Assembly (NCBI GenBank): GCA_964549635.1
Contig: CAZJVJ010000002.1
Span: 40,567-104,566, forward strand
DNA length: 64,000 bases
From: an uncultured Dehalococcoidales bacterium
GTDB lineage: Bacteria > Chloroflexota > Dehalococcoidia > GIF9 > UBA5629
Direction of reading: 5' to 3'
The position numbers and the translations under genes were made by a program. The notes beneath the pieces are model-generated. The model saw nothing but the letters and a program-made list of their open reading frames with translations. It was not told the DNA's origin and did not search any database. This document shows positions 28,636-53,817 of the stretch, piece by piece. Positions within the stretch are counted from its first letter, which is position 1, and each line of letters opens with the position of its first letter.

Positions 28636-28662
28636 TAAGTAACTAAAGTTAAGGAGGTTTAT

Positions 28663-29142
28663 ATGATGGCTGAAGGCTCCCTAATTACGGATGCACTTAA
28701 AAAGCTGATAGGTGTTCCTGGAGAGCCAGTTATTTTTAAAGTTGAAGAAGGAGCGATACAAAGGTATGCACAAGCTATAGGTGACCCTAATCCTTTATTC
28801 AACGATATAGAGAATGCCAGCAAGAACAAATATGGCAGGTTGATTTGCCCTCCAGGCTTTACCGGGTGGCCGATAAAGCCCGGATTTTCTATGTTTAAAC
28901 TGATTGATTCGTTGGTCAAAGCTGGGGCACCACCTCGGTTGCTGGACGGCGGTGTGGAATATGAATTTTTTGAGCCGATAGGGGCCGGAGATGTGCTAGT
29001 TGCTACCACAAAGGTTGCTGATATCACTGAACGTGAAACAAGAATGGGCAAGACCTTGTTTACCACTGTCGAGACGACCTTTGTCAACCAAAAGAATAAC
29101 AAGGTCATGCTAAAAAGCCGTTCCACGTTGATCCAATTTTAG
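28663..29142 (+). CDS. MaoC_dehydrat_N / FAS1-like hot-dog subunit (non-catalytic hydratase partner)
   Basis: 159 aa. 'FKVEEGAIQRYAQAIGDPNPLF' is typical of the N-terminal hot-dog half of (R)-hydratases. It lacks the hydratase-2 motif. Confidence 0.65.
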   Translation: MMAEGSLITDALKKLIGVPGEPVIFKVEEGAIQRYAQAIGDPNPLFNDIENASKNKYGRLICPPGFTGWPIKPGFSMFKLIDSLVKAGAPPRLLDGGVEYEFFEPIGAGDVLVATTKVADITERETRMGKTLFTTVETTFVNQKNNKVMLKSRSTLIQF

Positions 29143-29176
29143 GTGGCTTGTAACCATTTCAGATTGAGGAGGAGAC

Positions 29177-29647
29177 ATGGCTAAGCAAGTTTATTATGAA
29201 GATGTTGAAGTGGGAACCGAAATACCCCCGCTAGCTAAAATTGCCACAACTCGGATGCTGGTTCAGTGGGCAGGAGCCAGTGGTGATTTTAACCCATTAC
29301 ATTATGAAGATGACTTTGCCAAAGCTATGGGTGTAGGTGCACCTATAGTGCACGGTGCACTCAAACGTGCCTGGCTTGGACAACTGATGACAGATTGGAT
29401 TGGTGAGGAGGGGGTGCTAAAAAAACTGTCATGCCAGTATCGTGGCATGGACTACCCGCGTAAGATGAAAACCATAGAAGAACCGCACGATGGTGAGACA
29501 TGGTGGTGCAAAGGTAGGGTGGTCAAGAAATATGAGGAGGGTGGCGAGCACCTGGTAGAGTGTGAAATCTGGGTAGAAAATGGTAAGGGGGAAAAGACGA
29601 CACCGGGTAAAGCCTTGGTTGCCCTACCATCAAGAGGCAAGAAATAA
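29177..29647 (+). CDS. MaoC-like (R)-specific enoyl-CoA hydratase catalytic subunit
   Basis: 156 aa with the hydratase-2 motif 'SGDFNPLHYEDDFAKAMG'. Confidence 0.8.
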   Translation: MAKQVYYEDVEVGTEIPPLAKIATTRMLVQWAGASGDFNPLHYEDDFAKAMGVGAPIVHGALKRAWLGQLMTDWIGEEGVLKKLSCQYRGMDYPRKMKTIEEPHDGETWWCKGRVVKKYEEGGEHLVECEIWVENGKGEKTTPGKALVALPSRGKK

Positions 29648-29758
29648 GCATAGAGCTTGGCTGGATAGGTAATCGAAGAGTGATTTGTACGAAACATTTG
29701 AAACGAGCTGGCGTTCCGCCAGACGAAAATAACAACGTAAAGGAGGTAAAGATAGAAA

Positions 29759-30538
29759 ATGGGAAAACTTGATGGAAAGGTAGCAGTTATTACCGGAGCG
29801 GCAAGGGGTATAGGCGAAGCTGATGCGGTATTGTTTGCCAAAGAGGGCGCTGCTGTTTTGTTGAGCGACATTGATGAAGCTCCGCTAAAGGAAGTGGTTC
29901 AGAAGATAAGGGCTGCTGGTGGAAAGGCCGAAGCTTGTGCCGGCGATGTTACGAAACCGGAGGATTGCCAGAGGATGATGGATATGGCAGTCGAGAAATT
30001 CGGCAAAATCGATATCCTAGTCAACAATGCCGGGCTTACCAGAGATGCCTTAATACATAAGATGACTGATGCCCAGTGGGACTTGTGCATCAACATTAAC
30101 CTTAAGGGGACTTTCAATTGCATTAGAGCTGCTTCCAAATATATGATGAAGGAAGGGCATAACGGAAGAATAATCAATGTTGCCTCTGTGGCCGGACTAA
30201 TGGGCAATGTAGGGCAGATAAACTATTCTGCGGCTAAGGCAGGTCTTATTGGGCTCACCAAAACCGTGGCCAGGGAATGGGGTAGATACGGTATTACTTG
30301 CAATGTTATAGCTTATGGTTTCGTTGATACGCGGTTGACAAGAGAGAAGGAAGTACAGCAAGAGGAAGTAGCTGGTGAACTAGTAGGTATACCAAAGAAA
30401 GTGAGGGATATGGTTCTTTTGCAAGTTAAGCCTATGACACCTGAAGATGCTGCCAAACCTGTACTTTTCTTGGCTTCTGATGATGCTGCTTTTATCACAG
30501 GCCAGGTATTGAACGTTTCAGCCGGAATGTATATGTAG
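29759..30538 (+). CDS. short-chain dehydrogenase/reductase (FabG-like 3-oxoacyl reductase / hydroxyacyl-CoA dehydrogenase)
   Basis: 259 aa with 'TGAARGIGEA', 'NNAG' and 'YSAAKAG'. Confidence 0.8.
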   Translation: MGKLDGKVAVITGAARGIGEADAVLFAKEGAAVLLSDIDEAPLKEVVQKIRAAGGKAEACAGDVTKPEDCQRMMDMAVEKFGKIDILVNNAGLTRDALIHKMTDAQWDLCININLKGTFNCIRAASKYMMKEGHNGRIINVASVAGLMGNVGQINYSAAKAGLIGLTKTVAREWGRYGITCNVIAYGFVDTRLTREKEVQQEEVAGELVGIPKKVRDMVLLQVKPMTPEDAAKPVLFLASDDAAFITGQVLNVSAGMYM

Positions 30539-30631
30539 TTTTACCATCTAGCCTGTTGGGGACATCGGGCTTATTGATGAGATAACAACTACGGGTGGGC
30601 AACAACCGAAATAAATATGAGGAGGCCTGAG

Positions 30632-31567
30632 ATGGCAAGGAGGCTGGAAGGTAAGGTAGCTGTGGTTACTGGTGCTGGGCGTGGTATTGGTAGGGCTGAG
30701 GCGTTGGCTTTAGCTGCCGAAGGGGCCAGGGTGGTGGTTAACGACTTTGGTGGTGCTGGTGATGGCACTGGTGCCTCTAAGGCTCCAGCAGGTGAGGTTG
30801 TCCAGGAGATTAAGAAACTTGGTGGCGAGGCCGTTGCTAATTATGACACTGTAGCCACTCCAGAAGGCGGGGAGAATATCATCAAGACCGCAATTGATGC
30901 TTTTGGTCGCATCGATATCCTAGTTAACAATGCCGGAATCCTTCGCGACCGCATGATTTTCAATATGAGCGAAGAGGAATGGGATGCGGTAATTAAAGTT
31001 CATTTGTATGGTACTTTCCATTGTACAAAACCGGCATGTGTCTATTTCAGGCAGCAGAGGAGTGGCAGGATAGTAAATACGTCCTCTACCTCAGGTTTAG
31101 GTAATATGGGACAGGCTAACTACAGTGCTGCCAAAGAAGGAATTGTTGGCTTTACTCGGACAGTAGCCAGGGACATGGGGAGGTATGGTGTAACGTGTAA
31201 CGCTATTCGCCCCAGTGCCGGAACAAGGCTGACGCTAACGCCGGAGCTGAGAGCTGCCTGGGAGAAGGCTAAGGCTGAAGGCTTGCGTCCTCAAGCAGGT
31301 GTCATAACCCTCGATGAACTTGAAAAAATGACCCCTGAGATGGTAGCTCCGCTGGTTGTATACCTGTGCACTGACGAAGCAGCGAACATAAACGGTTGCA
31401 CCTTCTGGGTGGGTGGTGGTGAGATAGGTATTTACTCGGAACCGGAAGTAAGAAGCCGGATATATAAAGAAGGTATATGGACAGTGGATGAACTGATTAA
31501 CATCGTTCCCAGAACTCTGGCTAGGGGACTGATAAATCCGGCACCTCCACAGACACCAAAGCAATAG
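30632..31567 (+). CDS. SDR resembling the (3R)-hydroxyacyl-CoA dehydrogenase domain of multifunctional enzyme type 2
   Basis: 'VVTGAGRGIGRAEALALAAEGARVVVNDFGG...GGEAVANYDTV...AFGRIDILVNNAGILRDR...GQANYSAAK' tracks the MFE-2/HSD17B4 N-terminal domain. I prefer ATG 30632 (GAGGAGG 6 nt upstream) over 30617. Confidence 0.7.
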   Translation: MARRLEGKVAVVTGAGRGIGRAEALALAAEGARVVVNDFGGAGDGTGASKAPAGEVVQEIKKLGGEAVANYDTVATPEGGENIIKTAIDAFGRIDILVNNAGILRDRMIFNMSEEEWDAVIKVHLYGTFHCTKPACVYFRQQRSGRIVNTSSTSGLGNMGQANYSAAKEGIVGFTRTVARDMGRYGVTCNAIRPSAGTRLTLTPELRAAWEKAKAEGLRPQAGVITLDELEKMTPEMVAPLVVYLCTDEAANINGCTFWVGGGEIGIYSEPEVRSRIYKEGIWTVDELINIVPRTLARGLINPAPPQTPKQ

Positions 31568-31772
31568 TTTGGTGATATACACACAGCATGGCTTGGCGCA
31601 CCAAGAAATTAGTCAGTGTAGCTAACAGCGATATCTGCGTTGGCGCTGCCTGCTTGTTAGTGTTTAGTTTCTGCTGGTAGGGGGCACTTGCTTTAGTTGA
31701 CATCGTGCTTCACTTAATGACTGGAGACTCAACAAAATGTCTCGTTAACACCAAGTTTTGGGAGGCTTTAGG

Positions 31773-32975
31773 ATGGATTTCAAACTGAGTGACAAAGAAA
31801 AAGCTTTAATAGAAGAGATTGCAAAATTTGCCAAGGAAGAGCTACCTGAAGATTTTGTCGGCACTCATCTAATTGACCAAGAGTACCCAAACTTCGAATT
31901 CGAAATATCTATGTCCAAAAAGCTGGCCCAGAAAGGGTGGCTAGTAATGAGCTGGCCGAAGGAGTATGGTGGGCAAGGAGCTTCTTTACTTGAACAAACA
32001 GTGTATGAAATGGAGATATCCTACTGGGGGATACCAGGAGCATGGATGGGCATAAGTGGCACACAGTGGGTGGGGCCATGCCTCATGCTGTTCGGAACAG
32101 AAGAACAGAAGAAGAAATACCTGCCGCTCATTGCCTCCGGTGATAAAGACGGTGTCTGGTGCACCGGGTACAGTGAGCCAAATGCAGGCTCTGACCTTGC
32201 CAATCTGCAGACACGAGCTGTGAGGGATGGTACCGATTACATAATCAATGGCCAGAAGGTATGGACTAGCAAGGCCCACCACGCAAGGTGGTGCTGGCTT
32301 CTGGCGAGGACAGACCCTAGTGCAGCGAAGAAACACCGTGGACTTAGCCTGTTTATAGTGGACATGAAGAGTCCGGGAATAACGGTCAACCCTATATTGA
32401 ACTACTACGGTCGGCATCACTTTAATGAGGTGTTTTTTGACAATGTTAAGATCCCGGCTTCTAATCTGGTTGGTGAGGAGAACAGGGGATGGTATCACCT
32501 GATGCAAGCTCTGGCATTTGAGAGACGAAGTGTGGCCCCCCTAGCTTATGGAAGTTCTAAGAGGTTGCTGGAATCACTGGTTAAGTATGCCAGAGAAACT
32601 CATTACCAGGGTAAGTTACTGAGCCAGGTTCCCGCTGTCCGTCATAAACTGGCTGAGCTGGCGATAGATGTGGAGGTGATTAAACTGTTTGCTTACCAGT
32701 TTACTTGGCGAGTGATGCAGGGTGCGATACCCGCCTATGAATCCTCTAGAAATAAAATCATGGGTGATGACGTGCTTCGAAAGGTGGCCATTTTGGGGGC
32801 AGATATATTAGGAGTATACTCGCAAGTTGATCCGAATTCGAAATGGGCCCGACTTAAGGGGGCCATTCAGGGGGCTTATCTCGGTTTTCCTGGCTCTATG
32901 ATTGCTGCGGGTACTGCTGAAATTGAAAGAAGCATTATAGCCCAGTTTAAGCTGGGCCTGCCGAAATCGTACTAG
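31773..32975 (+). CDS. acyl-CoA dehydrogenase, class A (IVD/LCAD-type catalytic Glu present)
   Basis: 'MDFKLSDKEKALIEE', 'ALAFERRSV' (Glu at the IVD position) and 'AAGTAEIERSII' (Ala at the MCAD Glu position). I prefer ATG 31773 after GGGAGG. Confidence 0.8.
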   Translation: MDFKLSDKEKALIEEIAKFAKEELPEDFVGTHLIDQEYPNFEFEISMSKKLAQKGWLVMSWPKEYGGQGASLLEQTVYEMEISYWGIPGAWMGISGTQWVGPCLMLFGTEEQKKKYLPLIASGDKDGVWCTGYSEPNAGSDLANLQTRAVRDGTDYIINGQKVWTSKAHHARWCWLLARTDPSAAKKHRGLSLFIVDMKSPGITVNPILNYYGRHHFNEVFFDNVKIPASNLVGEENRGWYHLMQALAFERRSVAPLAYGSSKRLLESLVKYARETHYQGKLLSQVPAVRHKLAELAIDVEVIKLFAYQFTWRVMQGAIPAYESSRNKIMGDDVLRKVAILGADILGVYSQVDPNSKWARLKGAIQGAYLGFPGSMIAAGTAEIERSIIAQFKLGLPKSY

Positions 32976-32994
32976 ACGTTTGTAGGAGGTCACC

Positions 32995-34149
32995 ATGGAT
33001 TTTGGTTTCACAGAAGAGCAAGAGATGCTCCGAACCATGGCAAGAGATTTTCTAGCCAATGAATGTCCCAAGTCGAAGGTTAGAGAGCTGGACAGAGATG
33101 AAAAGGGCTACGATCCTAAGATGTGGCGCGATATGGCAGAACTGGGGTGGATGGGACTTATCTTCCCGGAGAAGTATGGCGGGACTGGAGCCAAATTTGT
33201 AGATATGGTAGTTTTGATGGAAGAAATGGGGAGGAATATTGTACCGGGGCCTTTCTTTTCAACCATTGCCCTGTGCGCCTTACCCATCCTTGAATTCGGT
33301 ACGGAGGAACAGAAATCTAAATTTCTGCCAGAGATAATAAAAGGTGAAGCTATATGGACGTTAGCTCTGATGGAACCATCAGCTAGTTATGAGGCACCAG
33401 GGATAAATTTTAGTGCTTATTTGGAAGGAGATGAGTATGTACTAGAGGGTGAGAAGATTTTTGTTCCCGATGCTCACATAGCTGATTACGTTCTTGTGGT
33501 AGCCAGGACGGGCAAAGGTGAAACACCTGAAACGGGCATCGCGTTATTCATAGTCCAGGGCAAATCTCCAGCCCTCAAAATTGAAAGAATACCTACCATG
33601 GCTGGAGACAGGCAGTTTCAGGTTATTTTTGATAGAATCAAGGTATCTAGGAATGACATTCTGGGAATAGCAGGTAAGGGATGGGAAGTAGTGGACTTTA
33701 TTTTACAGAGAGCCGCTGTATTGAAATGTGCTGAGATTTCAGGCGCGTGTCAAGCTGTTCTTGATATGACCAGCACGTATGCCAGGGAGCGGATTCAGTT
33801 CGAACGTCCGATAGGAGCGTTTCAGGCGGTACAGCAAAAATTGGCTGACATGCTTATAGATGTTGAAGCGATTCAGTTCCTTGTTTACCAGGCGGCCTGC
33901 AGTATTGATGAAGGTAAACCATCCCAATTACTGATTTCAATAGCCAAAGCTAAAGCAAGCGAGGCTTATCAGAAGATTTGTATTGATGGCATTACCTCAC
34001 ATGGAGCGATAGGTTTTACCTGGGATCACGATATCGGGCTCTACTACAGGCGAGTCAAGGCAGCCCAGTTCACTGCTGGTGATATTGATCTGCATCGGGA
34101 GAAAATAGCTATTGAGCTGGGGCTTCAGCATGACACAGAGCTTAATTAG
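32995..34149 (+). CDS. acyl-CoA dehydrogenase family, class B (both known catalytic-base positions substituted)
   Basis: ACAD fold ('MDFGFTEEQEMLR', 'PEKYGGTG'), but 'DFILQRAAV' has Gln at the IVD position and 'FTAGDIDLHRE' has Ala at the MCAD position. Confidence 0.75.
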   Translation: MDFGFTEEQEMLRTMARDFLANECPKSKVRELDRDEKGYDPKMWRDMAELGWMGLIFPEKYGGTGAKFVDMVVLMEEMGRNIVPGPFFSTIALCALPILEFGTEEQKSKFLPEIIKGEAIWTLALMEPSASYEAPGINFSAYLEGDEYVLEGEKIFVPDAHIADYVLVVARTGKGETPETGIALFIVQGKSPALKIERIPTMAGDRQFQVIFDRIKVSRNDILGIAGKGWEVVDFILQRAAVLKCAEISGACQAVLDMTSTYARERIQFERPIGAFQAVQQKLADMLIDVEAIQFLVYQAACSIDEGKPSQLLISIAKAKASEAYQKICIDGITSHGAIGFTWDHDIGLYYRRVKAAQFTAGDIDLHREKIAIELGLQHDTELN

Positions 34150-34374: not shown

Positions 34375-36165
34375 ATGAAAAAGGGTCTGTTTCTATTGTT
34401 AACTGGTCTTTTGTCGGCATCATTGTGCCTGCCAGCGTGTCAACCTAAGGCTATAGAGGAGAACATCATCAAAATCGGCATCGTCGGGCCGATGCAGTTC
34501 ATGCAAGGTGAGCATCACTGGATGGGTGCGACTATGGCTGCTGAGGAAATCAACAATGCTGGCGGAGTAAGTTTGGGCGGGAAAAAGTATCTTATAAAGC
34601 TCGTCAAAATTGATAGCAATGAGATACTTGATGTTGCTGGTGCTGCATCCGCAGTGGAGAGAGCCATAACCGTGGATAAAGTTGACTTCCTAATGGGCGG
34701 TTTCAGGACAGAAGCAGTTTACCCCATGTCCGATGTAGCCATGGACTATAAAAAGATTTTCATCAACTGTGGCGCTGCCACTGCAGCACTTCAGAAGCGA
34801 GTGGCCGATGATTACAATCGTTATAAGTACTTTTTCAAGGGCACTCCGTTCAATGAGTACTTTTTGGTGGAAAACAATTTCCGCATGTTAGGAATGGTTG
34901 CCGCTATTTTAAAAAAGGAACTGGGCATAGAAGAACCTAGGGTTGCCATAATTGCTGAAAAGCTGGAGTGGACTGAAGCAATGGTGCGATTAGCCCAGGC
35001 GAAATTACCGGGTATGGGGATGGAGGTAGTTGGTGTGTGGCGGCCATCGGATACGGCTACAGATGTCACCGCCGAGCTGACGGCCATTGCTGCCAAGGAA
35101 CCCCACATTATATTTACCGTGTTCTCTGGCCCTGTGGGCATTACCTATGCTAAACAACGCGGCGAGCTGAAGATACCTGCTTGTTCAGTTGGTATTGTTG
35201 TTGAAGGTCAGAAAAAGGAGTTCTGGACAGCTACCGGTGGCAAAGGCAACTATGAGACATTCTTAAACACGTATGCCAAGGGTGTAGCCTTAACTCACAA
35301 GACGGTACCTTTCTTCGAAGAGTTCGAGAGGCGAACTGGTCAATTCCCGACATACACCGCGGCTACTTATGATGCTGTCTGGAGTACCAAAGAAACGATT
35401 GAAGCGCTTCAGACCCTAGATGCTGATGCTCATGTTCCCTATATTGAAAAGTCATCATTTGTTAGCACTGGTGGGGTTCGAGAGTACTATCAACTGGGTG
35501 ATTCGCCATGTCCGCCAAAGTGTCCTCATGACCTAGTTTATGGTCCGGGCAAACTAACAGGTATTTGCACACAGTGGCAGGATGGAGAGCTTAAAGCTGT
35601 CTGGCCAAAGAAGGAATATGGCACGGGTGAGTGGGCATTTGAGTATCCAGGCACTGTTCCATTCAAGATACCGCCTGAGGTAATCGCTAAGTTTAAGGAC
35701 GCCAAACCTGTACCGAAACCGGAAGCACCGAGACCTAAAGTTAACGAGTATGTCAATGCTGACTATGGCTTTTCAGTGAGATATCCAATACAGTGGGTGG
35801 CGGCAGCACCTACTGCGCCGGCTGTGCTATATGCTGCTAGCCCAGCTAGGGTTCCAGCTATTCATGTTTTCGTGCTAGAAGGTGCCACTTTTGCCGATGC
35901 GGTAAAAACCGCGCTGGAGAAAGGGGCTGGTGGTTCGGCTATTAAGATTGGGGGTGAGAAGGAGACAACCCTAGCTGACGGCACTAAAGCTACGGCAGCT
36001 AAGGTGGACTGGACAGTCCTGGGATTTTCAGGCGAATCATATGCCTTGGGAGTGAAAAAGGCTGACAAGTGGATTATAGTTACTATAACCACTGTAGCCC
36101 TGGTTGAGGCTTATGACGAGGCTAAATTCTCAGAGATAGCGCGCACTCTTGAGTTTAAAAAGTAG
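34375..36165 (+). CDS. lipoprotein: type-1 periplasmic-binding-fold (Leu/Ile/Val-binding family) solute-binding protein with an extra C-terminal domain of about 139 aa
   Basis: Lipobox 'LCLPAC'. SBP core 'IKIGIVGPMQF...AAEEINNAGGV'. A Pro-rich linker 'KPVPKPEAPRPK' precedes a C-terminal domain (nt 35746-36162) homologous to the C-terminus of the 48964 lipoprotein. Confidence 0.75.
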   Translation: MKKGLFLLLTGLLSASLCLPACQPKAIEENIIKIGIVGPMQFMQGEHHWMGATMAAEEINNAGGVSLGGKKYLIKLVKIDSNEILDVAGAASAVERAITVDKVDFLMGGFRTEAVYPMSDVAMDYKKIFINCGAATAALQKRVADDYNRYKYFFKGTPFNEYFLVENNFRMLGMVAAILKKELGIEEPRVAIIAEKLEWTEAMVRLAQAKLPGMGMEVVGVWRPSDTATDVTAELTAIAAKEPHIIFTVFSGPVGITYAKQRGELKIPACSVGIVVEGQKKEFWTATGGKGNYETFLNTYAKGVALTHKTVPFFEEFERRTGQFPTYTAATYDAVWSTKETIEALQTLDADAHVPYIEKSSFVSTGGVREYYQLGDSPCPPKCPHDLVYGPGKLTGICTQWQDGELKAVWPKKEYGTGEWAFEYPGTVPFKIPPEVIAKFKDAKPVPKPEAPRPKVNEYVNADYGFSVRYPIQWVAAAPTAPAVLYAASPARVPAIHVFVLEGATFADAVKTALEKGAGGSAIKIGGEKETTLADGTKATAAKVDWTVLGFSGESYALGVKKADKWIIVTITTVALVEAYDEAKFSEIARTLEFKK

Positions 36166-36273: not shown

Positions 36274-37146
36274 ATGATTCAGGCATTCATTGTCCAATTG
36301 TTAATAGCTAGCGGGATATATGCACTGCTGGCCGTCGGTTTTTCTCTTATTTTTGGTGTAGCCCGTGTGATAAATCTAGCCCACACTGCATTCTTCATGA
36401 TAGCAGCGTATGGTATGTTTTTTTGCAGCTATCAACTTGGTCTGAATCCCATTTTGTCAGTAATTCTGTCGCTATGTGTTGCTACCTTCGCTGGCGTTGC
36501 AAGCTACAAGCTGTTTATTGATCGAGTAAGAGAACATCACGCAGCAGTATTATTGATAACTTTGACACTGGCTATGATCTTCCAGGAATTGTTATTATTG
36601 GCTTTTGGTGCCCATTTTCGTGACACCCCTGTTATCGTAGCTGGCTTCGCGGAGGTATTTGGCGTTAGAGTGGCCTATCAGCAGTTGCTATCGCTTGGTA
36701 TAGTAATTGTTGTGCTGCTGGGTGTTATAACGCTGTTAAATTGGACAAAGTTGGGCATTGCTATCAGGGCAACGGCTCAGGATACAGAGATCGCTAATCT
36801 TATGGGAATAAACGTCTCCAGGGTACTTTTGGTGACTATGGGCATAGCTTCGGCTCTGGCGGCGATTGCTGGTGTGGTAGTGGCACCATTATGGGTAACT
36901 TTTCCTTACATGTGGATGTCTCCGCTGGTGATGATAATGGCGATTGTGACTCTAGGTGGATTAGGCAGTATCAAGGGAAGTGTTATAGGGGCTTTCATAA
37001 TCGGACTGGTTGAAACACTGGTTGTTTTCTTGATTCCAGCGGGTGCGTTTCTCAGGCTGCCCTTCGCTTTGCTTATCATGGTAATAATACTTGTGGTCAG
37101 GCCCGGAGGCCTTTACGGTATAGTTTTTGAGGAGGAAAGATTGTAA
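36274..37146 (+). CDS. ABC importer permease, LivH type
   Basis: 290-aa polytopic protein of the branched-chain-amino-acid-type permease family ('GINVSRVLLVTMGIASALAAIAG'). Confidence 0.8.
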   Translation: MIQAFIVQLLIASGIYALLAVGFSLIFGVARVINLAHTAFFMIAAYGMFFCSYQLGLNPILSVILSLCVATFAGVASYKLFIDRVREHHAAVLLITLTLAMIFQELLLLAFGAHFRDTPVIVAGFAEVFGVRVAYQQLLSLGIVIVVLLGVITLLNWTKLGIAIRATAQDTEIANLMGINVSRVLLVTMGIASALAAIAGVVVAPLWVTFPYMWMSPLVMIMAIVTLGGLGSIKGSVIGAFIIGLVETLVVFLIPAGAFLRLPFALLIMVIILVVRPGGLYGIVFEEERL

Positions 37147-38184
37147 GTGTTAAGACGGTTGCTCAAAGATTTTCAAGGCGATGTACTGGCTATTCCGGGA
37201 CGGCTTCTTGCGCTTATTTTCTTTTTGTTCCTGTTCATGATGCCCCTGATTACACAAGACCCTTATATTCTCCGCATTCTTATCTTTTGCAATATTTTTG
37301 CCATTTTTGCTGTTAGCTGGGACTTTTTGTCAGGCTACACCGGCCAGATAAACTTTGGACATGCGCTGTTCTTCGGTGTTGCTGCCTATACTGCAGCCAT
37401 GCTGAATAAATATTTGGATTTTGAGCCGTGGGCAACGATATCTATAGGTGCAATTTTCGCCGTGCTGGCTGGAGTACTTATGTGCCTACCTGCATTAAGA
37501 TTGAGAGGGCCTTATCTATCGCTGGTTACCCTGGCCTTTCCTCTCATAATGCTCGGAATCATCAAAGCGTTTCCCGATATTACTGGCGGGGAGCATGGTA
37601 TAACAGGCCTTTCCCGTCTCTCTGAATCCCGTGTGGCCGACTATTATATATCAGCGCTGGTCATGACTATTTCTGTCTTGATAATGTGGAAACTCACTGA
37701 TGCTAGGAGTGGCCTGGTCAGAACAGGAATTATTCTCCACGCCATCCGTGAGGATGAGATTACGGCTCGGGCTACCGGAATTAACACCATACGTTACAAG
37801 ATGCTTGCCTTTGCTGTAGGTGGTTTTTTTGCTGGAGTGGCTGGCGGTTTATATGCCCACTTTATGAGAATTGCAGGCCCATCAACTCTGGACCTTCTCC
37901 TATCTTTCCAGGCAGTGATATGGACTATCTTTGGGGGCATAGTCAGCATATATGGACCAATTGTTGGCGTCTATGTGCTATATCCACTTACAGAAGTACT
38001 GAGGATTATTCCTGAGCTGCGGTTTTTAATCCTTGGTGCTATAGTTATAGTGATTATTCTTTTTATGCCTGAGGGGATTGCAGTATGGATTAGAGATAAA
38101 ATTGAGAGGCGTTGTCCACGCTGCAAATTAGCTAACGCCTCGTTACGCCGTGAATGCAGAGCCTGTGGTGCTTCTTTGTACTAG
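37147..38184 (+). CDS. ABC importer permease, LivM type, with a C-terminal 4-Cys zinc-ribbon tail
   Basis: 345 aa with LivM-like 'GYTGQINFGHALFFGVAAY'. The last 23 aa are 'CPRCKLANASLRRECRACGASLY'. GTG start directly after the livH-type stop. Confidence 0.8.
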   Translation: MLRRLLKDFQGDVLAIPGRLLALIFFLFLFMMPLITQDPYILRILIFCNIFAIFAVSWDFLSGYTGQINFGHALFFGVAAYTAAMLNKYLDFEPWATISIGAIFAVLAGVLMCLPALRLRGPYLSLVTLAFPLIMLGIIKAFPDITGGEHGITGLSRLSESRVADYYISALVMTISVLIMWKLTDARSGLVRTGIILHAIREDEITARATGINTIRYKMLAFAVGGFFAGVAGGLYAHFMRIAGPSTLDLLLSFQAVIWTIFGGIVSIYGPIVGVYVLYPLTEVLRIIPELRFLILGAIVIVIILFMPEGIAVWIRDKIERRCPRCKLANASLRRECRACGASLY

Positions 38185-38198: not shown

Positions 38199-38948
38199 TT
38201 ATAAACCTAGATAGGTCTTTCTGATAGTTTCGTCTTTAAGTAGCTCCTGGGCTGTTCCTTGAGCTATTATGTGCCCTCTGGACATAACGTAGTTTCTGCT
38301 TGACAAGTTGAAGGCGAAGCTGACGTCTTGTTCAGCCAGAAGTATAGTGACGCCCAGTTCGTGATAAATTTCCTCTATGCGTTTAAACAGGTCGTCTTTC
38401 AGTTTTGGTGCCAGTCCACTTGATGGTTCATCGACCAGCATAAACTTCGGTTTACGCATCAGTGCTCTGCCGATAGCCAGCATTTGCCGTTCACCGCCGG
38501 ATAAAGTGCCAGATATCTGATTTTCTCTTTCCTTTAATCTGGGAAACAATTCATAGACCTTGTTGAGACTGTCGTTGACTTCCTTTTTATCCTTGACTAG
38601 GAAGGCTCCGGCCAGCAAATTGTCCTTTACCGTCATTTCGGCGAATGGTCTACCTCTTTCTGGGCAGAGAAGCAGTCCTCTTTTGGCTATTTCGAAAGCT
38701 GAAAGTTTTTCAATCCTCTCTCCTTCGAACTCAATAGAACCCTCAAAAGTTATGTCTGCTTGCCTTGTCCCTTTTAATATTTCCTTCTCCCAGTTTATCA
38801 GTCCAGCTATAGCGCGAAGGAGAGTGCTTTTACCGGCGCCATTAGGACCGACAAGCCCCACCAGCTCTCCCCTCTCAACCTTGAGGTCAGCTTCATCCAG
38901 CACCATTGCCGTATCATAACAAACGGTGACATTCTTAACTTCTAGCAA
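38199..38948 (-). CDS. ABC ATPase, LivF type
   Basis: 249 aa with Walker A 'GPNGAGKST', signature 'LSGGERQ' and Walker B 'MLVDEPS'. Confidence 0.85.
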   Translation of the reverse strand: MLEVKNVTVCYDTAMVLDEADLKVERGELVGLVGPNGAGKSTLLRAIAGLINWEKEILKGTRQADITFEGSIEFEGERIEKLSAFEIAKRGLLLCPERGRPFAEMTVKDNLLAGAFLVKDKKEVNDSLNKVYELFPRLKERENQISGTLSGGERQMLAIGRALMRKPKFMLVDEPSSGLAPKLKDDLFKRIEEIYHELGVTILLAEQDVSFAFNLSSRNYVMSRGHIIAQGTAQELLKDETIRKTYLGL

Positions 38949-39711
38949 TGAGCACCTCCCTACCGGTATAGGCTTCGATTACCGCCGGGTTTTTGGCTAT
39001 TTCTTCAGGTGTGCCCTGGGCGATAACCTCACCGAAGGCAAGCACAATAACTCTATCAACAATCTTCATGAGTTCGGTTAGCTTATGTTCGATAATCAGC
39101 ATAGCTGGCCCTTCGCTGTGCAGTCTGCCGAATCTTCCACCCTTGTGTAACCTTTTCATTGATTTGGCTACGAGATCCGTTTCTGCTGGATTTAGCCCGC
39201 CGAAAGGCTCATCAAGTATAAGTAACTCCGGCTCGGTGGCAATGGCTCTGGCTACCTCCAGTCGCTTTAGGTCCCCATGGGAGAGGATTGAAGCTGGTTC
39301 AAGGGCCAAGTCAGCGATTCCGACAAACTCTAAAGCATCCCTCGCCTTCATCTCAGCTCTCTTGACCCACTCACCTCGTTTGGTTATCCTGGGACAGAGA
39401 CAGCCTACCATGACATTTGCAATGATAGGTAAATGGCGGAACGGCTTAACTACCTGAAAAGTCCCTACTACACCCTTCTGGACGATTTCCCAGGGGCGTC
39501 GTCTAGTTATGTCTTCGCCTTTGAACCTGACCTTTCCAGAATCGGGCTTTAATATACCGAGTATGCACCGTATGAGAGTGGTCTTACCAGAACCGTTTGG
39601 CCCAATGAGACCAACGATTTCATCTCGTTCTATTTTGAAGCTTACATTGTTGACAGCAACTAGCCCACCAAAGCGTTTTGTAAGGTTTTCTACTTCGAAG
39701 AATGGTACCAT
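38935..39711 (-). CDS. ABC ATPase, LivG type
   Basis: 258 aa with 'GPNGSGKTT', 'LSHGDLKRLEVARA' and 'LILDEP'. The start lies 1 nt after the upstream acyl-CoA ligase stop. Confidence 0.85.
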   Translation of the reverse strand: MVPFFEVENLTKRFGGLVAVNNVSFKIERDEIVGLIGPNGSGKTTLIRCILGILKPDSGKVRFKGEDITRRRPWEIVQKGVVGTFQVVKPFRHLPIIANVMVGCLCPRITKRGEWVKRAEMKARDALEFVGIADLALEPASILSHGDLKRLEVARAIATEPELLILDEPFGGLNPAETDLVAKSMKRLHKGGRFGRLHSEGPAMLIIEHKLTELMKIVDRVIVLAFGEVIAQGTPEEIAKNPAVIEAYTGREVLIARS

Positions 39712-39712
39712 T

Positions 39713-41428
39713 CTACATTTCCTCCTCCCTCAGCTCTCGGCGGGATACTTTGCCCACATCTGTCTTAGGCACTTCGCCTCTAAATTCAACGATTTTCGGA
39801 CATTTGTAGTGTGCCAGCCGTTCCCCACAATATTTTATAATCTCTTCCTCTGAGATTTTGCCCCGTGCTTCTGTTTCTAGCACTACGATAGCTTTGACTT
39901 TTTCGCCAACATCGGGGTCAGGCACGCCGATTACTCCAGCCTCTTTAACTTTTGGATGGGAAACCAGAACCTCCTCTACCTCGCGCGCAAACACAGCCAG
40001 CCCTTTGTATTTGATCATGTCTCGTTTTCTATCGTAGAAATAGAAATAGCCGTCCTCGTCCATTTTTGCTAAGTCACCGGTCCTAAGCCACGTTTCGCCA
40101 TCTATATCGACAAACATTTTCTTGGTCTCTTCAGGCTTATTCCAGTACCCTTTGCATACTTGTGGCCCCTTGACTACAAGTTCTCCTATTTCGCCCACAG
40201 GTAGGAAGTTAGTGCCTTCGGGATCGATAATGCCTGCTACGGTATTGGGAAGAGGAATGCCGAATGAGCCAACTTTCGGTTTACCATAGGGGCTGACCAT
40301 ACCTACTGAGCTGGTCTCAGTCATACCCCAGCCTTCGTGTATTTTAGTACCGGTGCGTTTTTCCCAGCCTTTAGCGGTGTCTTCAAGCAGTGCATCAGCA
40401 CCGGAGATGAGAACTTTGATGCGTTTCCAATTCACCCTGTCGGTGCGGTGATAGTCTCTGAGAAATTCATATAAGGACGGCACACTGTAGAAGATGGTTG
40501 CCTTGTAGCTCTCCATTGAGTTTAAGATGTCGTCAAGGTCGGGTGTAGTGAATATCACGAGTGTATAGCCTTGGGAAAGGCCACCCATCATAACCACGGC
40601 TTGACCATAGATATGATAGAAGGGAAGATAAGCTAGTATTGTTTCTTTGCCCTCCTGGACAACATCACCCCAGAACTTTTCTCCTAGATATCGAGCAGCA
40701 GTGAGATTGTAATGAGTTATCATTGCCCCCTTGGGCAGTCCTGTGGTGCCACCTGTGTAGGGCAAGGTTACTAAATCCTCTCTGATGTTGAATTTGATTT
40801 TGGGTGGATTGGGTGGATATTTTCTGAGCAAGTCCTGGAACCTGTAAAATCCCTCCCGTTCATATATCTCTACCGGTGGTGCTGCCATCTTTTGATATAC
40901 CGCCCGGAGTACGCTGCTACCGAGGAACTTCTTTGTTCCGGGTAAATACTCAGTAATGCTGGTTAGTATGACCCTATCTAGCTTGACACCTGTCCTTTCT
41001 ACATTATCATAGAGGATGTCCTGGCAAACAATAGTCTTAGCCTCACTGTCTTCAAGCTGGTACTTAATTTCAGGACTGACATAAAGTGGGCTGATGGCAG
41101 TTATGGTGGCACCAGCTTTTAAGGCTCCGAAATAAGCAATGATAAACTGCGGGGAGTTCAGTAGCAAAAGGGCAACTCTGTCACCCTTTTTTATACCTAA
41201 ATCATGTAGCGCGGTAGCAAAGCGATCAACCTGCTCCCTTAGCTCCTTGTAACTCATTTTTTTACCATAGAATATTATGGCGGTTTTATTTTTCCATTTA
41301 TCCGTGCCTTCATCGAAAGTTTGCACGACGGATTTCTCCGGAATTTCCACATCTGGTGGCACATCTTTAAGATACCATTTTAGCCAGGGTCTGGACTCAT
41401 AAATAGCTTTATTTGGATCGGTTGGCAC
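39713..41428 (-). CDS. AMP-forming (long/medium-chain) fatty-acid--CoA ligase
   Basis: 571 aa with the AMP-binding motif 'LPYTGGTTGLPKGAMITH', plus 'GWGMTE' and 'TGDLAKMDEDGYFYFYDRKRDMIKYKG'. Confidence 0.85.
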   Translation of the reverse strand: MPTDPNKAIYESRPWLKWYLKDVPPDVEIPEKSVVQTFDEGTDKWKNKTAIIFYGKKMSYKELREQVDRFATALHDLGIKKGDRVALLLLNSPQFIIAYFGALKAGATITAISPLYVSPEIKYQLEDSEAKTIVCQDILYDNVERTGVKLDRVILTSITEYLPGTKKFLGSSVLRAVYQKMAAPPVEIYEREGFYRFQDLLRKYPPNPPKIKFNIREDLVTLPYTGGTTGLPKGAMITHYNLTAARYLGEKFWGDVVQEGKETILAYLPFYHIYGQAVVMMGGLSQGYTLVIFTTPDLDDILNSMESYKATIFYSVPSLYEFLRDYHRTDRVNWKRIKVLISGADALLEDTAKGWEKRTGTKIHEGWGMTETSSVGMVSPYGKPKVGSFGIPLPNTVAGIIDPEGTNFLPVGEIGELVVKGPQVCKGYWNKPEETKKMFVDIDGETWLRTGDLAKMDEDGYFYFYDRKRDMIKYKGLAVFAREVEEVLVSHPKVKEAGVIGVPDPDVGEKVKAIVVLETEARGKISEEEIIKYCGERLAHYKCPKIVEFRGEVPKTDVGKVSRRELREEEM

Positions 41429-41592: not shown

Positions 41593-42366
41593 TTGGGGGC
41601 ACGAGATCAGATCAAATTAAGAGTTGAAGACCTCGGTTTATATTTCGGAAAGCTCCGTGCTTTGGACGGGGTTAGTTTGGAGGTCAGGGGGACAGAAATA
41701 CTGGCTGTTATAGGGCCGAATGGTGCTGGAAAGAGCTGCCTCCTCAACTGCATAAATGGCTTCTATCGTCCCCAGCAGGGAAATATCTATTTCGAGGGCA
41801 GGAATATTACCCGGATGCCTCCTCACAAGATTGCCGAGATGGGCCTGGCTCGGACCTTCCAGAACATCGAGCTCTATACTGGACTTACTGTTCTAGACAA
41901 TATTATGGCAGCCAGGCATGTTAAAATGAAGCAAGGAGCACTGGCTTGTGCCTTCTATTTTGGTCCGGCCTATCGAGAGGAGATAGAGCACCGAAAGGTG
42001 GTTGAGGACATAATAGACTTTCTGGAACTGGAACCGATTAGGAAGAAGGTGGTGGGTCTTCTTCCCTATGGAATGCGGAAGCGAGTGGAATTAGCTAGAG
42101 CACTGGCTTTAGAACCGAAGCTCCTTTTACTTGATGAGCCTATGGCGGGTATGAACATAGATGAGAAGGAGGACATGGCTCGTTTCATTATTGATACTAT
42201 AGAACTACGTCGTATACCTATTGTCCTTATTGAACATGATATGGAAGTGGTGATGGATATTGCTGATAGGGTAGTTGTCCTTGATTTTGGACATAAAATC
42301 GCTGAGGGTACACCTGATGAGATAAAGGTCAACCCTGCAGTCATTAAGGCATATCTGGGTGAATAG
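41593..42366 (+). CDS. ABC ATPase, LivG type (second system)
   Basis: 257 aa with 'GPNGAGKSC', 'LPYGMRKRVELARA' and 'LLLDEP'. TTG start after AAGGAG. Confidence 0.85.
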   Translation: MGARDQIKLRVEDLGLYFGKLRALDGVSLEVRGTEILAVIGPNGAGKSCLLNCINGFYRPQQGNIYFEGRNITRMPPHKIAEMGLARTFQNIELYTGLTVLDNIMAARHVKMKQGALACAFYFGPAYREEIEHRKVVEDIIDFLELEPIRKKVVGLLPYGMRKRVELARALALEPKLLLLDEPMAGMNIDEKEDMARFIIDTIELRRIPIVLIEHDMEVVMDIADRVVVLDFGHKIAEGTPDEIKVNPAVIKAYLGE

Positions 42367-48945: not shown

Positions 48946-48963
48946 GCGGAAAGGAGGCCTGAG

Positions 48964-50040
48964 ATGAAATACGGTTTTAAGGCATTAATTATCATAGCTG
49001 CGGTGGCACTTCTGATATTGCCGATGGCAGCCTGTGCTAAACAGCCGCCTGCTCCTCCTCCCCCTCCGCCCCCTCCAGCAGGGACAATTAGCGTGGAGCC
49101 AGCGAAGGTTGACTTCGAGCTTTTGAAGAAGTACTTCCCGCCGATTGCCAAGGCGTTGGGACTTCCTGAGGCTATGTCAGCAACGGTGCCGCATTTGGCT
49201 ATGCTGGCTGTTCCCGTGACATTCAAGGGGAGCGGCTGGCGGCCCAATGAGATAATCACAGTGGAGTTGGTCGTACCTCCCGATATTGAAATACCGGGGC
49301 TTGACCGGGCTCGCGGCGAGGATTCTGTTGGTATCGCTTATGCGACCGCAGACAGCGCAGGAAACTTTGAAGCGAAGCTGGAGAGGACGGCGACTATTGG
49401 GTTCATACTGCGCGGTGGATTTCAGCCGACACTGGCGATAGACCCAAAGACGCTAATCCCAGGAAACCCGTTGCCCAATGGCAGCTATACGTTGAGGGCT
49501 ATGGGTGATGACCCCCGTGCCGTAGCTACCACGACCTGGGTGTTAGAGCTAAAGCCACCAGCAGCGCCGCCAACTCCACCGGCAGAGAAGCCAGCTGAGC
49601 CTGGCAAACTTACGTTTGAGGCTGCAGAGTACACCAACGCTGAATTTGGTTTCTCAGTCAAGTATCCTAAGGAGTGGAAGCCTGAGAAGTCTGAAACGCT
49701 TCTATTCTATGCTGCAGCACCTACCATGGTTCCGGTTTTGTTTGTTGATGTTGAGACAGGGGCCACCTGTGCCGAAGCACTCAAGAAAATGCTTGAGGCT
49801 GCCGGCGGGACTGCCTTTAAAGTCCTCTCTGAAAAGGACAGCACTTTGGCCGATGGTACAAAGGCCTCAACAGTGACATTCGAAATATCGTTGAGGGGAT
49901 TCGCCGGCAAAGGCTTTGCACTGGGCACGAAAAAGGATGACAAGTGGATTATGGTTTCAGTTGGAACCGTGGAGATGCTGGCGAAGTATGATGAGGCTAA
50001 GTTCTCGGAGATAGTCCATACCCTGCAACTCAAGAAGTAA
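48964..50040 (+). CDS. two-domain lipoprotein of unknown function; its C-terminal domain is homologous to the C-terminal extension of the 34375 SBP
   Basis: Lipobox 'PMAAC', then an 8-Pro run, a beta-rich N-domain of about 160 aa, a Pro-rich linker, and a 137-aa C-domain (nt 49627-50037) ending 'KYDEAKFSEIVHTLQLKK'. The SBP C-terminus ends 'AYDEAKFSEIARTLEFKK'. Confidence 0.7.
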   Translation: MKYGFKALIIIAAVALLILPMAACAKQPPAPPPPPPPPAGTISVEPAKVDFELLKKYFPPIAKALGLPEAMSATVPHLAMLAVPVTFKGSGWRPNEIITVELVVPPDIEIPGLDRARGEDSVGIAYATADSAGNFEAKLERTATIGFILRGGFQPTLAIDPKTLIPGNPLPNGSYTLRAMGDDPRAVATTTWVLELKPPAAPPTPPAEKPAEPGKLTFEAAEYTNAEFGFSVKYPKEWKPEKSETLLFYAAAPTMVPVLFVDVETGATCAEALKKMLEAAGGTAFKVLSEKDSTLADGTKASTVTFEISLRGFAGKGFALGTKKDDKWIMVSVGTVEMLAKYDEAKFSEIVHTLQLKK

Positions 50041-50075
50041 TGCATCGGGGCAAGATAGATAGCCGAGGAGGGCAA

Positions 50076-50116
50076 GGAAGGAGAAGCCTAATTCTGTGGC
50101 AAGGGCTTCTCCTTCC
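50076..50116 (+). promoter_or_regulatory. stem-loop (13-bp perfect stem, 15-nt loop) just after the lipoprotein gene
   Basis: ggaaggagaagcc (50076-50088) pairs with ggcttctccttcc (50104-50116). No T-run follows. Confidence 0.5.
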
Positions 50117-50163
50117 ACCTCCAATGTATTCATCATATTCTGTATGGAAGACAACATTTGCCA

Positions 50164-50224
50164 ATGTAGCGCGAGGCTTCAGCTTCGCTGAGGAGAGAGG
50201 CGACCCTGAAGGGTCGCGCTACAT
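50164..50224 (+). promoter_or_regulatory. structured intergenic element with mutually exclusive helices
   Basis: An 11-bp outer helix atgtagcgcga/tcgcgctacat (50164-50174 / 50214-50224) competes with the hairpin gcgaccc-tgaa-gggtcgc (50200-50217). An internal 6-bp hairpin lies at 50177-50193. Confidence 0.4.
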
Positions 50225-50374: not shown

Positions 50375-51169
50375 ATGTTAAGGTTAAACAATATTGAAGT
50401 TATCTATCTGAATGTGATATTGGTGCTGAAGGGGGTATCTCTGGAAGTGCCAGATGGGCAGATTGTGACGCTGCTCGGCGGCAACGGTGCTGGTAAGACG
50501 ACAACACTCAAGGCTATTTCCGGGCTGCTTTATACAGAAGAGGGCGAGGTGACCGACGGCAGCATCGAGTGGGACGGACACCGAATAGATAGAATGAATC
50601 CCGAAGATGTGGTCAAGTTAGGGATTGTCCAGGTTTTGGAGGGGCGGCCGATGTTCGAACACCTATCTGTGGAGGAGGAATTAAAAGTAGGTGCATATAC
50701 GCGGCGTGATGCTGCGGGGGTAAAAAGGGACCTTGATATGGTATATAACTACTTCCCAAAGCTGAAGGATCTGCGTCATGCCACGACAGGCTATCTTTCC
50801 GGTGGTGAAAGGCAGATGGTGGTGATGGGGCGGGGGCTGATGGCACGTCCAAAGCTGATGCTTCTGGACGAGCCATCTCTTGGGCTCAGTCCTATACTTG
50901 TAAAAGAGATCTTTGACATAGTGAGGAAAATAAACGCGGAGGAAAAGACATCTTTTCTATTAGTGGAACAAAATGCCAGGGCTGCACTGGAACTAGCTAA
51001 CTATGGGTATGTAATGGAGAATGGCCGGGTGGTTATGGATGGGCCAGCTGAGAAGCTTAGAGATAATGAGGACATAAAGGAATTTTATCTGGGGTTGAGT
51101 AAGCTGGGCCAGAGGAGGAGTTACCGAGAGGTCAAGCACTATAAGCGACGTAAGCGCTGGCTGGCTTAA
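50375..51169 (+). CDS. ABC ATPase, LivF type (second system) with a basic C-terminal tail
   Basis: 264 aa with 'GGNGAGKTT', 'LSGGERQ' and 'LLDEPS'. A 23-aa tail 'SKLGQRRSYREVKHYKRRKRWLA' follows the usual 'EFYLGL' end. Confidence 0.85.
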   Translation: MLRLNNIEVIYLNVILVLKGVSLEVPDGQIVTLLGGNGAGKTTTLKAISGLLYTEEGEVTDGSIEWDGHRIDRMNPEDVVKLGIVQVLEGRPMFEHLSVEEELKVGAYTRRDAAGVKRDLDMVYNYFPKLKDLRHATTGYLSGGERQMVVMGRGLMARPKLMLLDEPSLGLSPILVKEIFDIVRKINAEEKTSFLLVEQNARAALELANYGYVMENGRVVMDGPAEKLRDNEDIKEFYLGLSKLGQRRSYREVKHYKRRKRWLA

Positions 51170-53779: not shown

Positions 53780-53817
53780 GTTGTGTTGCCCTTTCCTTAA
53801 AGCCGGTGTTGTGCTTA

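Follow-up and report, generated by a model that had tools for sequence, protein, structure and literature searches.

Why should the binding protein of one Liv-type importer end in an extra domain whose relative, in a second importer encoded nearby, ends a different lipoprotein? This question is raised by a stretch of 64,000 nucleotides (the window) from an uncultured Dehalococcoidales bacterium (assembly GCA_964549635.1, contig CAZJVJ010000002.1, positions 40,567 to 104,566), which encodes two Liv-type ATP-binding cassette (ABC) importers, called here system 1 and system 2. A preliminary description of the locus saw in it a Rosetta-stone pattern, in which fusion in one system and separate neighbouring genes in the other would betray a functional or physical partnership. 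Is the domain then a dedicated subunit of these importers, a generic piece of the cell envelope, or something else? The comparisons described here show it as a PsbP-fold module predicted to lie beyond the cytoplasmic membrane, where it forms the C-terminus of lipoproteins and is held by a Pro-rich tether. They also show it as a multi-copy, interchangeable element that is concentrated, as far as gene content tells, on the lipoproteins of two importers accompanied in this lineage by acyl-CoA ligases and enzymes of β-oxidation type.

The two domain-bearing genes and their parts are as follows (aa, amino acids; AF2, AlphaFold2).

34375..36165, plus strand: gene of the fusion lipoprotein, 596 aa (translation; Pfam Peripla_BP_6, E 7.4e-24, residues 38-358), made up of a signal peptide with an LPAC lipobox-like motif (Cys22), a Liv-type Peripla_BP_6 part, a Pro-rich linker and a C-terminal PsbP-like domain
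35695..35745, plus strand: Pro/Lys-rich linker, about residues 441-457 (...KDAKPVPKPEAPRPKVN), leading from the binding-protein fold to the domain (read from the sequence)
35746..36162, plus strand: copy A of the PsbP/Mog1-fold domain, 139 aa, residues 458-596, on the system-1 binding protein (BLASTP to copy B; AF2; Foldseek)
48964..50040, plus strand: gene of a 358-aa lipoprotein directly 3′ of the system-2 binding-protein genes (translation), made up of a signal peptide (Cys24), a poly-Pro run, an N-terminal Ig-like domain, a Pro-rich linker and a C-terminal PsbP-like domain
49078..49560, plus strand: N-terminal domain of the lipoprotein, about 161 aa (AF2 model; Foldseek)
49627..50037, plus strand: copy B of the PsbP/Mog1-fold domain, 137 aa, residues 222-358 (BLASTP to copy A; Pfam PsbP_2, E 9.5e-4)

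Copies A and B align end to end in BLASTP with 70 identities in 139 positions (50%), 70% positives, 2 gaps and an E value of 2e-43, which bears out an earlier hand count of about half the positions, and the motifs picked out at that time, TLADGTKA, DKWI and YDEAKFSEI..TL..KK, all lie in this alignment. Chance similarity is rejected by the E value and by the existence of a family of 768 clusters, and a recent local duplication in the window is rejected as the source of the shared domain because the copies share 50% identity and other genomes contain closer relatives of each. Neither copy finds a third one in the whole window by tblastn, the next-best matches having E >= 0.34. The preliminary description had correctly read the gene at 34375, of the Peripla_BP_6 family by Pfam, as a binding protein that continues through a Pro-rich linker, KPVPKPEAPRPKV (Pro/Lys-rich), into a 139-aa tail, and had rightly placed the lipoprotein gene directly 3′ of two system-2 binding-protein genes (46331-47593, 47677-48945), which Pfam likewise assigns to Peripla_BP_6. 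It erred in calling the second copy free-standing, which is in fact the C-terminal half of a two-module lipoprotein with a separate domain in its N-terminal 160 or so residues. By eye, both proteins start with a hydrophobic stretch; the fusion then has LPAC (Cys22) and the lipoprotein MAAC (Cys24), with non-canonical residues at -2 and -3. Stand-alone homologues of the domain have an LTLPAC motif, again by eye. In an orthologue of the fusion (L006/L045/P0196; L-numbers label related loci and P-numbers label proteins of the profile search) the binding-protein part is 93% identical, and the linker is the least conserved part among fusion orthologues, with 24-82% identity.

What kind of domain is it? 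Pfam gave no match on the isolated domain, and a sequence-profile search of the PDB returned only noise, in which a short-chain dehydrogenase/reductase (SDR) at E 0.24 was judged spurious and the PsbP-like PnsL1 at E 1.3 is suggestive only. An AF2 model calculated from a 20-sequence alignment of the domain has a pLDDT (predicted local distance difference test) of 94.8 and a pTM (predicted template-modelling score) of 0.90, and contains nine strands and two helices; residues Y2, W17, D78-G79-T80, K105, K108, E125 and S129 are invariant in the alignment. Its best Foldseek match in the PDB is cyanobacterial PsbP (2xb3; E 1.2e-6, template-modelling score (TM) 0.76), and almost all of the 30 matches at E <= 0.001 are PsbP, PnsL, Eag, DcrB, Apa or proteins returned alongside them. 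Other matches are PsbP-like subunits of the chloroplast NDH complex, plant PsbP and the Jonesia protein 3lyd, and weaker ones are EagT6/SciW, Apa, Mtc28, LpqN and DcrB. The PF18933 (PsbP_2) profile gives 12.2 bits (E 0.18) for the fusion and 19.7 bits (E 9.5e-4) for the lipoprotein, both under the cut-off of 27, and these sub-threshold matches span only about the first 30 residues of the domain. An exhaustive profile search collected 768 representative clusters at E <= 1e-3, 213 of them at E <= 1e-10. Among 82 multi-domain representatives, 42 match PF18933 (best 2.1e-63) and nine match PF01789 (PsbP), and two relatives in the wider family match Pfam DcrB. In the top match, P0043, the domain occurs twice in tandem, at 55% and 49% identity to the window copy, and the protein scores 49.8 bits on PF18933. 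Membership of the window domain in PF18933 is evidently transitive, running through homologues that pass the cut-off, with its own scores staying below. The model and these relatives identify the shared segment as a PsbP/Mog1-fold domain related to Pfam PsbP_2. The earlier guess of a PsbP/Mog1-like domain, for which a Foldseek check had been proposed and has now been run, was therefore right at the level of fold or superfamily (AF2, Foldseek 2xb3, homologues passing PF18933). A word-indexed search with the isolated domain found 42 homologues at 37-59% identity in Chloroflexi metagenome bins, nearly all of them proteins of 182-224 aa consisting of the domain preceded by a signal peptide, an LPAC motif and a Pro/Glu/Thr-rich linker.

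Does the domain keep company with Liv-type binding proteins elsewhere? Scanning genome and metagenome contigs with the domain profile yielded 119 related loci, and their neighbouring genes were labelled by phmmer with the window proteins as queries and, for selected loci, by Pfam. Nearly all of these loci are from metagenome-assembled genomes (MAGs) of Chloroflexota/Dehalococcoidia and three are from Syntrophomonadaceae/Bacillota; individual MAGs hold 3-6 or more copies of the domain, and tandem domain-domain proteins also occur. Clustering of the domain-bearing proteins at 80% identity gave 70 gene clusters, 56 of them informative and 14 with too little flanking sequence. The domain is fused to a binding protein in 17 of the 56 and adjacent to a binding-protein gene in 19; it is within three genes of a binding-protein or permease gene in 4 and has neither nearby in 16. 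Recognisable binding proteins number 0/459 among genes five or more positions away. Such a survey of recurrence on or near type-1 substrate-binding proteins was what the preliminary description had proposed, and the 17 fused and 19 adjacent clusters answer it in the affirmative. Stand-alone domain genes, too, adjoin binding-protein genes (L015, L018, L031, L033, L034, L039, L077, L104, L118). Fusion or adjacency recurs in at least three operon contexts and with binding-protein subfamilies that have no detectable mutual BLAST similarity. Because the fused and adjacent clusters are many, the distal genes include no recognisable binding protein and the binding proteins concerned are diverse, the link of the close subfamily of the domain to Liv-type binding proteins is judged, from gene order, to be real and recurrent, and the Rosetta-stone pattern, with fusion in some genomes and separate neighbours in others, is likewise a recurrent one.

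The contexts fall into about five classes.

Class A (window system 1): thiolase, two MaoC genes, SDR, two acyl-CoA dehydrogenase (ACAD) genes, binding protein fused to the domain, LivH, LivM, convergent ATPases and ligase
Class B (window system 2): ATPase, ligase, LivH, LivM, one or two binding proteins, Ig-like domain fused to the domain, ATPase
Class C: glycyl-radical enzyme and activase, orphan binding protein, Ig-like domain fused to the domain, stand-alone domain gene, enoyl-CoA hydratase; no permease genes
Class D: DUF1214, then DUF1254 fused to the domain
Class E: domain lipoprotein standing alone, with thiolase, DUF35 and CoA-transferase genes around it; no transporter within 10 kb

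Several class A loci have one or two extra stand-alone domain genes before livH. In class C, exemplified by L104:4578-12065 (also L062, L063, L105, L118, L050), a gene for a glycyl radical enzyme resembling pyruvate formate-lyase and a radical-SAM activase gene lie directly upstream of an orphan Liv-type binding protein; an Ig-like plus PsbP-like lipoprotein, a stand-alone PsbP-like lipoprotein and an enoyl-CoA hydratase follow, with no permease genes nearby. In class D, exemplified by L059:8820-10417 (also L007, L008, L051-L053, L055, L056, L060), a DUF1214 gene is followed by a DUF1254 and PsbP-like fusion; DUF1214 and DUF1254 usually occur within one protein, and here they are split, with DUF1254 carrying the domain. 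A composite order is found in L074:1-14209, where a system-2 operon through the Ig-like plus PsbP-like gene is directly followed by LivH/LivM, ATPase and ligase of system 1, with no fusion binding-protein gene between the two parts.

Is the domain needed by the transporters that carry it? When the fusion's binding-protein part is compared with its 120 closest homologues (56-93% identity), the domain is present in 49 of them and missing from 71, and a neighbour-joining tree of that part needs at least 5 gains or losses. Loci were fetched for four of the proteins without the domain: L126/L127, L128 and L129 have the same operon layout as system 1 (L125 ends soon after the gene), and all of these, L125 included, have no domain copy in up to 8 kb fetched per side. 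System 2 has its own case: in L130 (FWPV01008626.1, 8590-8970; compare window 49561-50040) a complete operon encodes a 200-aa lipoprotein that is the Ig-like domain alone. One frame of the intergenic DNA 3′ of this gene reads FPEIACKLQFKK-stop, a C-terminal relic of the domain, and therefore the domain was deleted there; a longer reading of the frame is ...FPEIACKLQFKKQ-stop. Three further homologues besides L130 are lipoproteins of the N-domain only. Taken over both systems, these comparisons show the domain to be optional and not a core part of the transporter.

What, then, is the regular companion of the binding proteins in system 2? Neither Pfam nor PDB sequences match residues 39-199 of the window lipoprotein, and a search of 5.8 billion proteins gave only 7 homologues of this N-domain, four of them lipoproteins of about 200 aa consisting of that domain alone. 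Lipoprotein homologues of 353-389 aa lie 3′ of binding-protein genes in L010, L013, L015, L016, L018, L030, L046, L047, L049 and L050, and further ones in L062-L066, L072-L074, L078 and others. The AF2 model of the N-domain has a pLDDT of 79 and a pTM of 0.73, with one of five models confident. It is probably an Ig-like β-sandwich with a helical insertion, from a family without a known match, and it is called Ig-like only tentatively because Foldseek gives only generic Ig-like β-sandwiches (TM 0.3-0.46). As judged from these operons, it is the N-domain and not the PsbP-like domain that is the constant neighbour of the binding proteins in system-2-type operons.

The domain is not only gained and lost but also exchanged. 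Between the window and the L009/L011 fusions the binding-protein part is 79-81% identical and the domain 54-55%. In the L009/L011 genomes the domain of the fusion is 75-82% identical to that of the neighbouring lipoprotein and 68-72% identical to window copy B, and in two other contigs both domain copies resemble the type of window copy A. Identity of copies within a genome is 72-82% in four contigs (L009/L016, L011/L013, L054/L047, L108/L049) versus 50% in the window. By sequence identity, domain types thus group by genome and not by host gene, which implies at least two replacements or gene conversions, apparently between two genes that lie about 13 kb from each other.

How can a module that is linked to the binding proteins of importers be dispensable to them? 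The reading that we favour, with confidence a little short of even, is that of a tethered accessory module that docks to a putative shared partner or to other copies of itself. The domain has been attached repeatedly to the lipoproteins of two Liv-type importers, namely the binding protein of system 1 and the Ig-like lipoprotein of system 2, where it would add a second, host-independent binding function without taking part in the transport cycle. That the binding function is an independent one is probable because the domain works on unrelated hosts and is removable without dismantling the operon. Via the domain the lipoproteins may dock to a shared partner in the envelope or on the transporter side, or to each other, and so form one surface assembly near the translocators. 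Docking is favoured because extrinsic faces of membrane complexes (photosystem II, NDH) are the typical docking sites of PsbP-fold proteins and because a mycobacterial protein of this kind, LpqN, is reported to interact with transporters and to bind a lipid mimic. LpqN is a lipoprotein of PsbP/Mog1 fold for which interaction with MmpL3/MmpL11 and binding of a trehalose-monomycolate mimic have been reported (PMC7458404).

Several points weigh against this reading. The background estimate recognises only binding proteins like the three of the window, and the loci were retrieved with peptide patterns of the close subfamily, many of them being orthologous. Independent associations are few, amounting to about five context classes, of which three involve binding proteins. 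The stand-alone copies of class E, set among thiolase, DUF35 and CoA-transferase genes, have no transporter within 10 kb. Moreover, the grouping by genome could reflect neutral gene conversion of nearby similar sequences and not a shared partner.

The wider family shows on what other hosts such a domain may sit. Fusion to a binding protein is rare there (3/82 multi-domain representatives), and the partners include fn3- or CARDB-type Ig-like domains, InlB B-repeats, DUF1254, ABC-2 permease, CotH, DnaJ and β-lactamase. Further partners are Ser/Thr kinases (kinase-fn3-domain) and TIR proteins, in which the domain is at the C-terminal end and is presumed to form an extracellular tail of receptor-like proteins. 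One TIR-fn3-PsbP-like protein (585 aa; L113:352-6403) is encoded downstream of SLATT/DUF4231 and AAA + RyR-domain genes, and this looks like a conflict- or defence-type locus with the domain at the C-terminal end. In the three Syntrophomonadaceae/Bacillota MAGs (L026, L027, L028) stand-alone PsbP-like genes lie divergently beside LytR_cpsA_psr, accompanied by GT4 glycosyltransferase genes in L026/L027 and by an adjoining Ser/Thr kinase gene in L028; this setting is one of the cell envelope and not of transport. Peripla_BP_6 and its clan are the only binding-protein partners among those listed, and no SBP_bac_1 or SBP_bac_5 partner is present in the listed top 25 of 88 Pfam families or in ten long fusions scanned.

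Could the domain itself capture substrate? On this account, the main rival of docking but one that we consider unlikely, the tethered domain would bind the hydrophobic or amphipathic carboxylic acids of the importers near the membrane and raise their local concentration for the binding proteins. It is analogous to what has been proposed for LpqN with the MmpL transporters, as LpqN is reported to bind a trehalose-monomycolate mimic (PMC7458404), and the fold of the domain matches both LpqN and the Eag chaperones that shield hydrophobic helices. It would also suit the surroundings, since four of the five context classes are clusters of acyl-CoA-type catabolism (ligases, thiolases, MaoC hydratases, ACADs, glycyl radical enzyme) and the domain protein is the only recognisably exported protein in the thiolase class, and a ligand sensor would be in keeping with the domain's use as a tail, presumed extracellular, on kinases and TIR proteins. 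Yet the domain is lost or missing from otherwise identical transporters, it is swapped between systems with sequence-unrelated binding proteins, and neither the DUF1254 fusion nor the LytR_cpsA_psr/glycosyltransferase settings of Bacillota indicate fatty-acid binding.

The domain might otherwise be a generic module of the envelope that anchors or spaces lipoproteins with respect to the S-layer or a glycopolymer, unrelated to transport, a proposal to which we likewise assign a low probability. It would then sit on binding proteins mainly because these are abundant lipoproteins of these monoderm bacteria. The promiscuous architectures in the wider family of 768 clusters, the long Pro-rich tethers, the optional and exchangeable nature of the domain and its position next to LytR_cpsA_psr in the three Bacillota loci (with GT4 in L026/L027) are what such a module would lead one to expect. 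Random attachment, however, predicts partners of the SBP_bac_1 or SBP_bac_5 type, whereas only the Peripla_BP_6 clan is found among the listed partners. In addition, the association holds at an orphan binding protein without permease genes (L104) and where the gene order differs (L078), and no known anchoring motif was found in the domain. Of the outcome that the preliminary description would have taken as refuting it, a generic surface module without enrichment near ABC transporters, the generic half is borne out and the lack of enrichment is not.

A bolder reading, again one to which we would give only a minor share of belief, has several lipoproteins share the domain as the common part of a capture-and-delivery assembly at the surface of Dehalococcoidia, which have no outer membrane. 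The tethered modules would either take up organic acids of poor solubility or dock on LivHM and on each other, so that the binding proteins and Ig-like lipoproteins of several importers are gathered in one uptake complex, and domain exchange would keep the modules of a genome uniform. If true, Liv-type ABC importers would have an accessory layer of a kind not described for them.

Least probable of all is a dedicated importer subunit whose domain binds the Liv-type binding protein or LivHM directly. Fusion in one system and adjacency in the other, extra stand-alone domain genes between the fusion gene and livH (L031, L033, L034, L039, L077, L079) and the strong enrichment near binding proteins speak for it, but the domain is dispensable in both systems, the Ig-like N-domain is the constant partner in system 2, the same domain type serves binding proteins without detectable sequence similarity, and many copies have no transporter nearby. 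The Rosetta-stone reading therefore stands in part: recurrent fusion and adjacency (17 and 19 of 56) are found, whereas a specific partnership is not what an optional and swapped domain with many unrelated hosts suggests, and no association specific or obligatory enough to imply a dedicated partnership emerged from these comparisons.

The remaining genes of the two importers are arranged in the window as follows.

36274-37146, plus strand: LivH-like permease of system 1 (Pfam BPD_transp_2, E 2.7e-36)
37147-38184, plus strand: LivM-like permease of system 1 (Pfam BPD_transp_2, E 1e-41)
38199-38948 and 38935-39711, minus strand: two ABC ATPase genes, convergent with system 1 (Pfam ABC_tran, BCA_ABC_TP_C)
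39713-41428, minus strand: acyl-CoA-ligase-like AMP-binding gene, convergent with system 1 (Pfam AMP-binding)
41593-42366, plus strand: ATPase of system 2 (Pfam)
42377-44344, plus strand: AMP-binding ligase of system 2, 655 aa (Pfam)
44371-45255, plus strand: LivH-like permease of system 2 (Pfam)
45257-46303, plus strand: LivM-like permease of system 2 (Pfam)
46331-47593 and 47677-48945, plus strand: pair of paralogous genes for the Peripla_BP_6 binding proteins of system 2, sharing 68-70% identity (Pfam)
50375..51169, plus strand: second ATPase of system 2, after a gap of 335 nucleotides (Pfam ABC_tran)

System 1 thus runs from the fusion gene through LivH and LivM to the convergent ATPase, ATPase and AMP-binding ligase, and system 2 runs ATPase, 655-aa ligase, LivH, LivM, two binding-protein genes, lipoprotein and ATPase. 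The Liv-type (HAAT) gene set is complete by Pfam in both, with Peripla_BP_6, two BPD_transp_2, two ABC_tran ATPases (one with BCA_ABC_TP_C) and an AMP-binding ligase, and the system-1 binding protein has no significant BLAST similarity to either of the system-2 binding proteins. The convergent arrangement of 38199..41428 is kept in L006, L009, L011, L024, L054 and others, the system-2 operon is conserved in L013, L016, L047, L064, L085, L102 and L130, and the second system-2 ATPase has the same position in L013, L016, L064 and L130. NCBIfam models for long-chain-fatty-acid--CoA ligase match the product of 39713-41428 with scores under their cut-offs, and NCBIfam has no informative name for the fusion or the 358-aa lipoprotein.

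Both importers are flanked by thiolase, MaoC, SDR and acyl-CoA dehydrogenase genes. The flanking sets (27433-34149 and 51349-55005), which include an SCP-x-type thiolase, paired MaoC hydratase genes, two SDRs and paired and tripled acyl-CoA dehydrogenases, are typical of β-oxidation of bulky or branched acyl-CoAs. The thiolase is present at every fusion-bearing locus with enough upstream sequence and is missing from the domain-less paralogous operons L125-L129. An 81-aa open reading frame at 50040-50285 is rejected as a gene, since none of 124 related loci contains a homologue of it. Two hairpins lie in the 335-nucleotide gap (50041-50374), a perfect one of 13 bp (50076-50116) and an imperfect one with 28-nucleotide arms (50161-50227), both without a T-run, an Rfam match or a second copy in the window, and Rfam and terminator scans near the fusion and lipoprotein genes found nothing. 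The GC content is 0.545 in 48001-50000 versus about 0.47 alongside; the rise coincides with the Pro/Ala-rich linkers of the lipoprotein and the N-termini of binding proteins and is probably an effect of codon composition, not foreign DNA.

Subsurface sediments are rich in Dehalococcoidia, which are thought to feed on recalcitrant organic acids. With its repeated grafting onto the lipoproteins of acyl-acid importers, its loss from them and its exchange among them, the PsbP-fold module is a testable candidate for an accessory step of uptake, and it bears on the poorly understood gathering of substrates by cells without an outer membrane. Even if it is only a generic envelope tail, annotation gains: "branched-chain amino acid binding proteins" of about 600 aa become two-module proteins, and a 358-aa "hypothetical" becomes an Ig-like domain plus a PsbP-like domain. 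No paper on PsbP-like domains with binding proteins, in Dehalococcoidia or in Chloroflexi was found, and the PF18933 literature yielded one unrelated paper. The view that no accessory extracytoplasmic domain has been described for Liv-type importers agrees with our literature search, which found none. What is known already is the fold, the Pfam family and mycobacterial lipoproteins of PsbP/Mog1 fold accompanying transporters; what is new, with no counterpart found in the literature, is a PsbP-like module on or beside Liv-type binding proteins together with its gain, loss and exchange.

How does this module compare with known systems? With PF18933 and cyanobacterial PsbP (CyanoP; 2xb3, 2lnj) it shares the fold and the N-terminal motif Y-x-N-x-x-x-G-F-S-x-x-Y-P-x-x-W, but its identity to solved PsbP structures is 10-18%, the window copies are under the PF18933 cut-off, the host is a non-photosynthetic member of the Chloroflexota, and the domain sits on the binding protein of an ABC importer and not on a photosystem. 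Mycobacterial LpqN (6e5d), Mtc28 (4pws) and Apa (5zx9) are lipoproteins or secreted proteins of the same fold. Their match is weaker (TM 0.48-0.60; LpqN 6e5d, query-normalised TMq 0.48), their likeness to the window domain being one of fold and gene neighbourhood, and the partners of LpqN are MmpL exporters of the resistance-nodulation-division type, unlike Liv-type importers; no binding-protein fusion has been described for the mycobacterial proteins. DcrB/DUF1795/Eag proteins (EagT6, SciW) belong to the same fold class with a weak match (TM 0.47-0.54), but Eag proteins are cytoplasmic chaperones of type VI effectors and DcrB is a proteobacterial periplasmic lipoprotein, unlike the window domain. 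With Liv-type importers that have acyl-CoA ligase genes both window systems share the full Pfam set, whereas canonical Liv-type systems have no extra extracytoplasmic module and the closest paralogous operons (L126-L129) have no domain. In GlnPQ and OpuA, importers of Gram-positive bacteria, the extra modules are substrate-binding domains fused to the permease. These resemble the present case in placing extra extracytoplasmic modules near the translocator in bacteria without an outer membrane, whereas the window module is an unrelated PsbP-fold domain on the binding protein or on another lipoprotein. The contexts of the PsbP/Mog1 fold, which comprise photosystem II, NDH, MmpL accessories and chaperones of type VI secretion, are thereby extended to ABC importers.

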